Source of the DNA: a virus | Taxonomy: Duplodnaviria; Caudoviricetes | DNA length: 64,000 bases | Virus record (IMG/VR): IMGVR_UViG_3300037722_001090 | Direction: 5' to 3' (one strand) | Part shown: positions 46,900 through 49,075 of the stretch, piece by piece | Layout: each line of letters begins with the position of its first letter | How positions within the stretch are numbered: position 1 is the stretch's first letter | Program-made: the position numbers and the translations under genes | The notes under the pieces: model-generated | What the model was told of the DNA's origin: nothing | What the model saw: the letters and a program-made list of their open reading frames with translations, nothing else | The model's database searches: none

Positions 46900-47440
46900 A
46901 CGTATTTGATAATTCAAAGAATAGCTCGGAGACACGCATGTCATTCTCCCATTTCGCCATAGTTGCCCGATAGTTTTTAGCTGGACACTATTCTTTATTA
47001 ATACTGATTGGTCACTTGCTCCTTAAAGCACACAAAACCAAGCTCATTTACTGTTCTTGTCGACAGAACAGATAGCCTCGTTTGTCTATGACAATTCTAA
47101 ATTACTAGCGTCACCATTAACCTATCCAAGAGGCGGTGTGGTTTTTGGTTGCGGGAAGAGCAGCTAGTTTATAATATAAACTCCCTCACTCTTATCCATG
47201 GATCTTGCTGCGCGCATTACACCTATAACCTGCTTGAGAGCAGGCTTCAAGGTCGCAACCAGTGACGGTAACTCAGCTTTGTGTGCTTTAAGCAGCAAGC
47301 GTCCACCTATTTCGTAGTTCAGTGGACGCTTACTACCTCTTCAGAGATCAAACAGTAGTCTTGATAGACTTATAACCATTTCCGGCCATTAGCAGGATGG
47401 TATCTATCGTGAAAGTCGTATAAATTTTCACTTAAAAAAT
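46900..47440 (-). ncRNA. candidate large structured RNA
   Basis: ORF-free; long-range complementary pairs such as TTAAAGCACACAAA / TTTGTGTGCTTTAA and TGGTTGCG / CGCAACCA. Confidence 0.5.
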
Positions 47441-47454
47441 GATCTTACTTGAGC

Positions 47455-47907
47455 TTAGAGCTCGAAGGTGCTCGGACGAAGACCGAGTTTGTTGCAAATT
47501 TCGCGAACAACCTTCTTTTCGTTGTCATCGAAATCGCCATCAGCTCCACCGATCAGGATGCCGACGCGGACAACCAGAGTGCGAGCTTCTTCGGGTGCGG
47601 CAACGATCTTGGCAATAGCCTTCATGGCCTCGTCACGGCCCATCGAAGTGTCGAGCTGGAAGATGCCGTCATATTTCTCGAAAGCTTTCTTGACAGCTTC
47701 GGGCGTATGCCCGGCCATGGTCGGATGATTCTGAACGAACTGGAGAGCTTTCAGCTTTTCCGAAGCATCGAACGAGCCATCAGCCCAACCGACCATCACG
47801 ACGGTAGCCATGGCAGCGTCGAAGATGTCGCCGGTCATGAATTTCTTTGCTTCACCGACAATTTGCCCAAGCATTTCTTTGAGCTTGGAAATAAATCCCC
47901 ATGCCAT
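47455..47907 (-). CDS. terB: TerB-family protein
   Basis: VGWADG..DASE, IGGADGDFDDNEK..V.EIC..LGL. Confidence 0.9.
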   Translation of the reverse strand: MAWGFISKLKEMLGQIVGEAKKFMTGDIFDAAMATVVMVGWADGSFDASEKLKALQFVQNHPTMAGHTPEAVKKAFEKYDGIFQLDTSMGRDEAMKAIAKIVAAPEEARTLVVRVGILIGGADGDFDDNEKKVVREICNKLGLRPSTFEL

Positions 47908-47949
47908 AATCTGTACTCCTTTGTTGGTTGTTTAAAAAAGAATTAACTA

Positions 47950-49075
47950 AAAAGCTCCAGCTTTGCACTGGTAAGTCGGGGCCTTAACTTAATACAATAG
48001 GCTTCTCCATATGCATTAACCAGTTTTCTCGAAATAAAATTAGCTGATTTCACAGGCAGCCGTACTAGGCTCTTTAAATAATTCCCGTTTCTTCACTTAG
48101 CCGGATAATTATACGGCACCAATAATTCGATAACCACAATAGGTATACATACTTCAGTCTTTGTCTAACCATCGTTGTTCCTGCCACCACTAGCTTACGG
48201 TTCTCAGATGGATTGCAAGAAAGATTTTAGGTGGATATCTCCCATATGCAATGACTAGACTCCTCTCACGAACGTCTTATTTGAGTATTATTAGACGTTA
48301 TCTTGCTCCTTATCACCGAACACAGCAGCAGCTTTATTATACCGTCCTCAATAGTGAGGGTTTCAGTGGCGCTGAACTAATCAACTGTGAACCAATTACG
48401 ACAATAAGGCAACGTTTCTCAACTCGACAAGATTTGGGGCCTTAGAATTTTGTATCTAGATAAATCAAGCGCTCTTCAGCATACCCCTTTTCAGTTACTT
48501 GGTTTATTGTCCCAAGCAAGTATACACCGCGTCATTGATTCCATATCCACGTCAGGACTTAGGAGTGCTTTTCGCACTAATCTATTACAGTCTCCCACAC
48601 TTTTTAGTTAAACTAAAAATATAAATACACTAGGTCAAAGGGAACGGCTACCTAGTATTGCCCGTCAAAGATATTTAGGCTCTATGATATACCCCTATTT
48701 GAAATCATAGACAGTCCATTGATCTTACGCTCAGTGTCAAGGACAAATTAAGCCAGATTTTCATCACTGTCCATTCAGTCACAGTCAACTCGTTAGTTAG
48801 TCGGACGTCTGTCATAGCTGGATACCAAATAAGACATCAATACTCGCCAGACAAAGTAAAGATGAATACTTACTCTTAAAAGCACCTTATTCCTATATTC
48901 GGTACAATCCTAAGACATTATCCCTCAAGTGGCCGGTTTATCCACGCTTCCCAGGTCATTCGTTATTGGAAGTATCCACTAGGATTGAGTAAGCACCAGT
49001 TGTTAGTCGGGAGATTGCACCATATCAGGCTACCCATAAATTTCTGCGAATTACAGCAGCAGGGACTAACAAGCT
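47950..49075 (-). ncRNA. candidate large structured RNA tract
   Basis: About 1.1 kb without a credible ORF; many short perfect hairpins; strand inferred from neighbours. Confidence 0.45.

Follow-up and report, generated by a model that had tools for sequence, protein, structure and literature searches.

An undescribed structured RNA downstream of terB and a gene-free tract between terC and terB in a large phage genome

Genes and gene-free tracts at the terC-terB locus

The window, that is, the whole 64-kb stretch of DNA analysed here, is contained in a gene-dense 205,327-bp contig of an uncultured phage whose genes lie on the minus strand. Besides 24 tRNA calls, the window has genes for TROVE/Ro60, RNA ligase, PARP, DNA ligase, a CCA-adding enzyme and RlaP, together with terC and two terB-type genes. 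In the order of transcription, terC (50043-49078) is followed by a gene-free tract (tract 2), terB (47907-47455), a further gene-free tract (tract 1) and tRNA-like elements that extend to 46478 (Table 1). The gap upstream of terC is only 60 nt, and a terminator search found none after this gene. Since the nearest named relatives of TerC belong to Desulfobacterota, this is the likely host group. The terB-type genes at 47455-47907 and 50104-50502 are richer in GC (46-48%, calculated in windows) than the phage average (37%), which suggests an origin in the host; the TerB family is a rare one, counting 6 proteins at E 1e-20, and in relatives its genes sit behind terC or a Na/Ca-exchanger gene. Endonuclease-like ORFs are found on the plus strand, against the direction of the genome, at 2666-3346 (called LEM-3/GIY-YIG), 10409-10987, 21570-21998, 33600-34085 and 54043-54816.

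Table 1. Features of the terC-terB locus, listed in the direction of transcription (positions in the window)
Feature	Position	Strand	Remarks
terC, membrane protein	49078..50043	-	Pfam TerC E 1.9e-44; stop codon abuts tract 2
Tract 2, candidate large RNA or string of small RNAs	47915..49077	-	1.16 kb, no ORF
Tract 2, 5' domain	48998..49078	-	9-bp closing helix around two small hairpins; fold z -1.4, not significant
Tract 2, 3' domain	47938..48085	-	Irregular 21-bp rod just before the terB ribosome-binding site; fold z -1.8
terB	47455..47907	-	Pfam TerB E 1e-16
Tract 1, upstream hairpin	47361..47408	-	Fold z -4.0 in both the window and the sister strain L008
Tract 1, conserved 5' strand GGUAGUAAGCG	47327..47337	-	11 nt; identical in L005
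Tract 1, 5' arm of closing stalk	47276..47301	-	Pairing kept by compensatory changes
Tract 1, variable multi-branched interior	47039..47275	-	About 237 nt (about 147 nt in L005); 0 differences to L008
Tract 1, 3' arm of closing stalk	47013..47038	-	Ends AGGAGCAAGUG; outer end shared with the stalk at 23181-23458
Shrunken tRNA-like element	46837..46895	-	59 nt; acceptor-like stem, encoded CCA; fold z -1.4; separate unit downstream of tract 1

An earlier note, made from the same sequence, had described two gene-free tracts on either side of terB, and this description holds: no credible ORF is present in 46900-47454 or 47908-49077 in any of the six frames checked. TAA, TAG and TGA stops all occur in all six frames of both tracts, so that recoding of one stop would open no long frame. 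Six short ORFs in the tracts found no match in a PHROG search, and a 71-aa ORF that is called over the 5' half of tract 1 in a sister strain (L008, 98% identical) was discarded as a gene, being interrupted in the window and a singleton without a family. The tract next to terB, which had been put at about 540 nt, is indeed non-coding, but the stretch downstream of terB is longer than that, running from 47454 to 46478 (about 980 nt) and including the tRNA-like elements.

Tract 1 is a structured RNA closed by a compensated stalk

On the minus strand, downstream of the metal-stress gene terB, tract 1 (47013-47408) holds a real and undescribed RNA that is structured and measures about 300-400 bases. 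The region 47005-47310 folds with a z of -8.0 on this strand (-7.6 in another run) and of -3.6 on the plus strand, and the interior without the stalk still reaches -3.5. Long-range complementarity had been noticed in both tracts, and all of the quoted pairings are present; the folding goes beyond chance, however, in tract 1 only and not in tract 2. The quoted 14-bp pair belongs to an inverted repeat of 28 nt (47009-47036 with 47278-47305), and the TGGTTGCG/CGCAACCA pairing is located at 47261/47146.

Two further copies were reached by following TerB homologues, namely that of the sister strain and that of a distant 2.5-kb contig (L005; TerB 68% and TerC 71% identical), which may not be phage. 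Against the sister strain, tract 1 has 0 differences in 329 nt of core (47014-47342); differences occur on either side of it, 14 over the 72 nt that follow terB and 6 over the 114 nt beyond the core. The L005 copy also lies behind terB and has the same 5' words and the same 3' words around a different interior, the distance from stalk to stalk being 199 nt in L005 and 289 nt in the window. In both, 25 of the 26 positions of the closing stalk are paired, and the single mismatch (G.G, pair 9) is common to them. Six double-sided and two single-sided changes separate the two stalks with 0 pairs broken, a covariation drawn from two independent sequences, which were aligned manually with the two conserved ends as anchors. 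The interiors have the short words UUACYGU, UGCGAC and ACAGUAR in common. The upstream hairpin (47361-47408) is retained in the sister strain despite several substitutions and has no sequence counterpart in L005. For a possible pseudoknot joining 47255-47263 with 47003-47010, which competes with another helix, manual alignment gives an equivalent in L005.

Searches for further members covered a wide range of genomes. Motif scans of viral and metagenome contigs gave nothing, or matches that proved on inspection to be due to chance; no homologue was found in about 400 Desulfobacterota genomes in 22 Ro60-phage records and five by DNA, or in cultured phages, and protein searches of viral contigs led by TerB and the CCA enzyme found nothing. 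The TerC/TerB relatives L006, L007, L077, L078, L140-143 and L234-236 contain no such tracts, and phage relatives with a Na/Ca-exchanger-terB arrangement have neither tract at the same site. Tract 1 is, on this evidence, a rare phage RNA that has the support of covariation and whose stalk is unusual in having two predicted states.

A long terminal inverted repeat is also the a1/a2 feature of retrons, in which such a stalk encloses msr-msd, and tract 1 carries in addition a conserved G.G apposition in the stalk. It might hence be an orphan retron-type template for the stand-alone reverse transcriptase of the phage, a 257-aa RVT_1 gene about 5-6 kb before the start of the window (in a region numbered 15851-19204 outside the window). 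This reverse transcriptase, the one seen in the part of the genome that was read (all but about 140 kb), lies more than 50 kb from tract 1 and is not adjacent to it; inside the G.G site the stalk extends for another 17 pairs, unlike what is usual in retrons; and no long msd hairpin is common to the window and L005, nor is there an excess of palindromes, so that we consider the retron reading quite improbable. A decoy function based on palindromes was rejected on the same count. Gene-free gaps of about 560, 1200 and 500 nt surround the RVT_1 gene itself, and next to it are genes for Thg1, another RNA ligase and a kinase.

A predicted two-state end at the 5' side of tract 1

The strand at 47291-47301 can pair either with 47327-47337 or with the 3' end of the RNA. 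Forced folds of the two conformers give -125.1 and -125.0 kcal/mol for the window and -73.7 and -76.7 kcal/mol for L005. During transcription, the 5' pairing could form first, and the 3' pairing would become possible only once the RNA is complete. The exchange hides or frees an AGGAG word, behind which no conserved ORF was found.

Such a two-state pairing around an AGGAG word, together with a terminator-like hairpin just before the start of terB, is what might be expected of a cis-regulatory leader or attenuator of terB and terC acting as a metal-sensing switch, a possibility that the earlier note had also raised. Some background for this reading comes from the frequent control of TerC genes by Mn riboswitches and the terC motif (PMC5737381). 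On the other hand, tract 1 lies downstream of terB, the AGGAG word leads into no conserved ORF, and Rfam searches detected no yybP-ykoY or terC motif. Tract 2 is absent from L005, where terC and terB are 29 nt apart, and the gap upstream of terC measures only 60 nt. Regulation of terB or terC in cis is, in our view, most unlikely.

The outer stalk end is shared with a 23S-mimic RNA

Only two long-range stalks came out of a scan of all 64 kb, that of tract 1 (284 nt) and one at 23181-23458 (277 nt). The RNA at the latter position (minus strand) matches the GTPase centre of 23S rRNA (E 2e-8), and it has relatives in the cultured phages ME3, XacN1, XaC1, RSP15 and others, where they are unannotated. 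The outer 8 pairs are common to both stalks (5'-CGYUUNCU / AGNAAGUG-3'), with identity at 6 of 8 bases in one arm and 7 of 8 in the other and with the same G.U at pair 2. Under a random-stalk model, the chance of such a shared end, which was noticed post hoc, is 0.0003 in fixed register and 0.0015 with slack. Within tract 1, this shared end is also the part that stays invariant between the window and L005. Four homologues of the 23S mimic in other phages do not have this tag; the shared end would therefore be specific to the phage lineage, and it rests on one pair of RNAs, noticed after the fact.

The two RNAs resemble each other in size (about 280 nt), in a closing stalk of 22-25 bp, in a variable interior and in the outer end. 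They differ in that the 23S mimic belongs to a widespread family, whereas two members of tract 1 are known and tract 1 has no likeness to rRNA: a comparison with 16S and 23S from four rRNA loci gave nothing, while the control mimic was matched at the E value given above. It is tempting to speculate that the lineage uses a sequence-tagged stalk cassette that releases several different RNAs of 280 nt, the 23S mimic and the tract 1 RNA among them, from long transcripts, with strand exchange arming cleavage only when each is complete, and that tract 2 is a separate RNA of more than 1 kb, longer than GOLLD; this extended proposal is improbable as it stands.

Comparison with known RNA families

Searches of the window against Rfam gave only tRNAs at the gathering score and nothing relevant at E 10, and neither the window nor L005 matched ROOL, GOLLD, tmRNA, RNase P or Y RNA even at that threshold. 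The suggestion that the tracts are phage RNAs of the ROOL/GOLLD class or new ones is consequently borne out for tract 1 as a new structured RNA and not as a member of ROOL or GOLLD, from which the absence of an Rfam match and the size set it apart. ROOL is about 581 nt (PMC5737381), GOLLD often exceeds 800 nt (PMC12286853), and both occur near phage tRNA islands (PMC5737381; PMC12286853). Like them, tract 1 is a structured phage RNA, and tRNA-like genes follow it directly; ROOL and GOLLD are themselves RNAs of unknown function. In contrast to them, its core measures 199-289 nt and consists of one dominant stalk with a variable interior. As for the covarying junctions and pseudoknots of that class, the stalk of tract 1 covaries (two sequences), whereas the searches found no homologue of tract 2.

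Among small phage RNAs, RNA C and RNA D of T4 are late RNAs of unknown function (PMC9697503), and tract 1 resembles them as a stand-alone phage-encoded RNA. It differs in being larger, in its two-state 5'/3' pairing and in having no sequence match in cultured phages. The two T4 RNAs arise when host RNases process the transcript of the tRNA cluster. The stalks cut by RNase III, as in pre-rRNA and phage T7 transcripts, offer another parallel, namely a helix of about two turns closing an RNA that is to be released, the ideal substrate being about 22 bp (PMC3867540); the sequence determinants of this enzyme are degenerate, and cleavage of tract 1 is a prediction only.

Known phage tmRNAs are either whole or reduced to the tRNA part (PMC4131195). 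Tract 1 could be read as a tmRNA derivative in which a tag-like reading portion survives and the tRNA-like one is gone: it contains, at 47329-47288, the frame ASTELRNRWTLAA-stop; it aligns loosely with host-type tmRNAs, better than shuffles do for 4 of the 9 compared; and a tmRNA-like 3' end occurs at 46847-46837. But the frame is shifted by 17 nt in L005 and has no stop after LAA there, the tag region is paired within the long stalk, and neither a G3.U70 pair nor a T-loop is present, the nearest acceptor-like pairing being A3-U70. Rfam, ARAGORN down to 85% and a profile of nine tmRNAs all failed to match, and the alignment signal is unspecific, since RNase P RNAs likewise give the window copy a score higher than that of shuffles. 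We regard descent from tmRNA as very unlikely.

Other families were considered and rejected. RNase P RNA is contradicted by the lack of the P4 motifs (CR I, CR V) and of a profile match, the positive control reaching E 1e-32. Y RNA and YrlA carry a GNCGAAN0-1G Ro-binding motif near the 5' end (PMC4201824), which is absent from both tracts and L005 and present elsewhere in the tRNA region. Neither a P7 core nor domain V of group I or II introns was seen, and the flanking genes are whole. Readings as SRP RNA and as T-box were tried and dismissed. A hammerhead-like CUGAAGAG...GAAA at 47344 has extra bases in two stems, is changed in the sister strain and is absent from L005, and the GGA words expected of a Csr-type sponge are near background (about 21, counted by eye, versus about 19 expected).

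Tract 2 is a non-coding stretch, possibly an insertion, with weak signs of structure

Tract 2 is truly non-coding over its 1.16 kb and is probably an insertion; its structure is suggestive but weak. Its fold is no better than that of shuffles, with a z of -0.5 for the whole and of -1.5 to +1.1 for parts; small domains within it give -0.9 to -1.8, and pair probability exceeds 0.8 in the outer helix of the 3' domain, which a terminator-like hairpin at 47957-47971 overlaps. Three hairpins that the earlier note had quoted are present (about 48564-48578, 48683-48709 and 48363-48377), yet local hairpins in tract 2 are at the level of chance (32 versus 27.6+-4.1 expected). The repeat of GGGGCCTTA (47978, 48436) is likewise a chance-level observation, as 6 repeated 9-mers were seen against 3.9 expected, and the copy at 47978 is mutated in the sister strain.

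What argues, if weakly, for tract 2 as a structured RNA is mainly an excess of long helices on the minus strand: 13 helices of at least 11 bp versus 5.4+-2.3 in 400 shuffles (p 0.0075), where the 11-bp threshold was picked post hoc and 2 of 5 settings are significant. This excess has the highest z of 54 windows, and none is seen on the plus strand or in terC. Several of the long helices are mutually exclusive. Between the window and the sister strain, tract 2 shows 0 differences over 48019-49077 (1059 nt), but the identical block continues 359 nt into terC, so that recent recombination explains the identity as well as selection does. The absence of tract 2 from L005 implies either an insertion in the window or a loss in L005, and it means that the tract is not required as a leader of terB. 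A homologue search with tract 2 found none, and its GC content is 40% versus 37% for the window.

From these data tract 2 could be taken as a single giant RNA of about 1.1 kb, rich in pseudoknots and working in the manner of ROOL/GOLLD, and tract 1 would then be another, smaller RNA of this sort. The helix excess, confined to the minus strand and including many long-range and crossing helices, the identity to the sister strain and the raised GC all accord with it. They are countered by the post hoc threshold, the mutual exclusivity of helices, the unremarkable minimum free energy of the whole, the equally good explanation of the identity by recombination, and the lack of a homologue or Rfam match. 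A giant RNA is, in our judgement, unlikely though worth keeping in view, and it is compatible with the main reading of tract 1 given below.

A paralogous relationship to tract 1 was rejected: the two tracts have an 11-mer in common, but their alignment is not significant (p 0.6-0.75). The hairpin at 48564-48578 (minus strand), with 5 bp and a GAAAA loop, resembles lambda boxB, and no boxA lies beside it. A 13-mer at 48723-48735 (minus strand) is common with a Geobacteraceae tmRNA (L226) and is not significant (p 0.23).

tRNA-like elements

In L005, a tRNA-like cloverleaf (2344-2456) with a 5-bp stem, a 7-nt loop and an ACCA word directly follows the tract 1 homologue, its fold being not significant (z -0.5). 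In the window, a tRNA-like gene at 46511-46653 (minus strand) has a long insertion and the anticodon loop CUUUAAA (UUA, which would read a stop codon), and an uninterrupted relative of it occurs at L026 14505-14575. At 46676-46682 and 46839-46845 (minus strand), CGGCUCC-A precedes GGAGCCG by about 155 nt, which is the order of a permuted acceptor stem; with A3-U70 and no T-loop, this arrangement is probably due to chance or a relic. A further tRNA-like gene of 126 nt at 53402-53531 (minus strand) was found by Rfam and not by ARAGORN.

A model for tract 1 and its implications

The basis in hand for tract 1 is that it is non-coding, structured on the sense (minus) strand and closed by a stalk kept by compensatory change. 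We propose, with about an even chance of being right, that it is an independent gene for a non-coding RNA, one of a small family so far undescribed, whose product is cut at its stalk from the ter/tRNA transcript and serves as a decoy or scaffold. The lack of a terminator after terC suggests that it would be co-transcribed with terC-terB and the following tRNA-like genes. On synthesis, the 3' end may displace the 5' strand and complete a stalk of 25 bp, whose conserved outer end would be recognised by a double-strand-specific nuclease, either a host enzyme of the RNase III type or a phage enzyme. Cleavage would release a stable, stalk-closed RNA of roughly 250-290 nt, and the 23S-mimic RNA of the phage, with its similarly ending stalk, could be matured by the same route. 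By analogy with the other translation-related RNAs of the genome, tract 1 may act as a free RNA, most likely as a decoy or scaffold within the armoury for translation and RNA repair (tRNAs, Ro60, CCA enzyme, RNA ligases) and not as a regulator of terB; a specific decoy role is weakened by the fact that the interior is not conserved in sequence. Tract 2 would most likely be further RNA-gene cargo in the same transcript, in the form of one large RNA or several small ones.

Large structured RNAs of phages are few and their functions are open questions. With the weight that two members allow, and with tract 2 as a candidate only, tract 1 adds a family outside Rfam that combines covariation in the stalk, an end with two predicted states and an outer tag also found on the stalk of a ribosome-mimic RNA of this genome. 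Should this tag prove to be a processing signal, it would provide a handle for finding other hidden phage RNAs and for understanding how they are matured.
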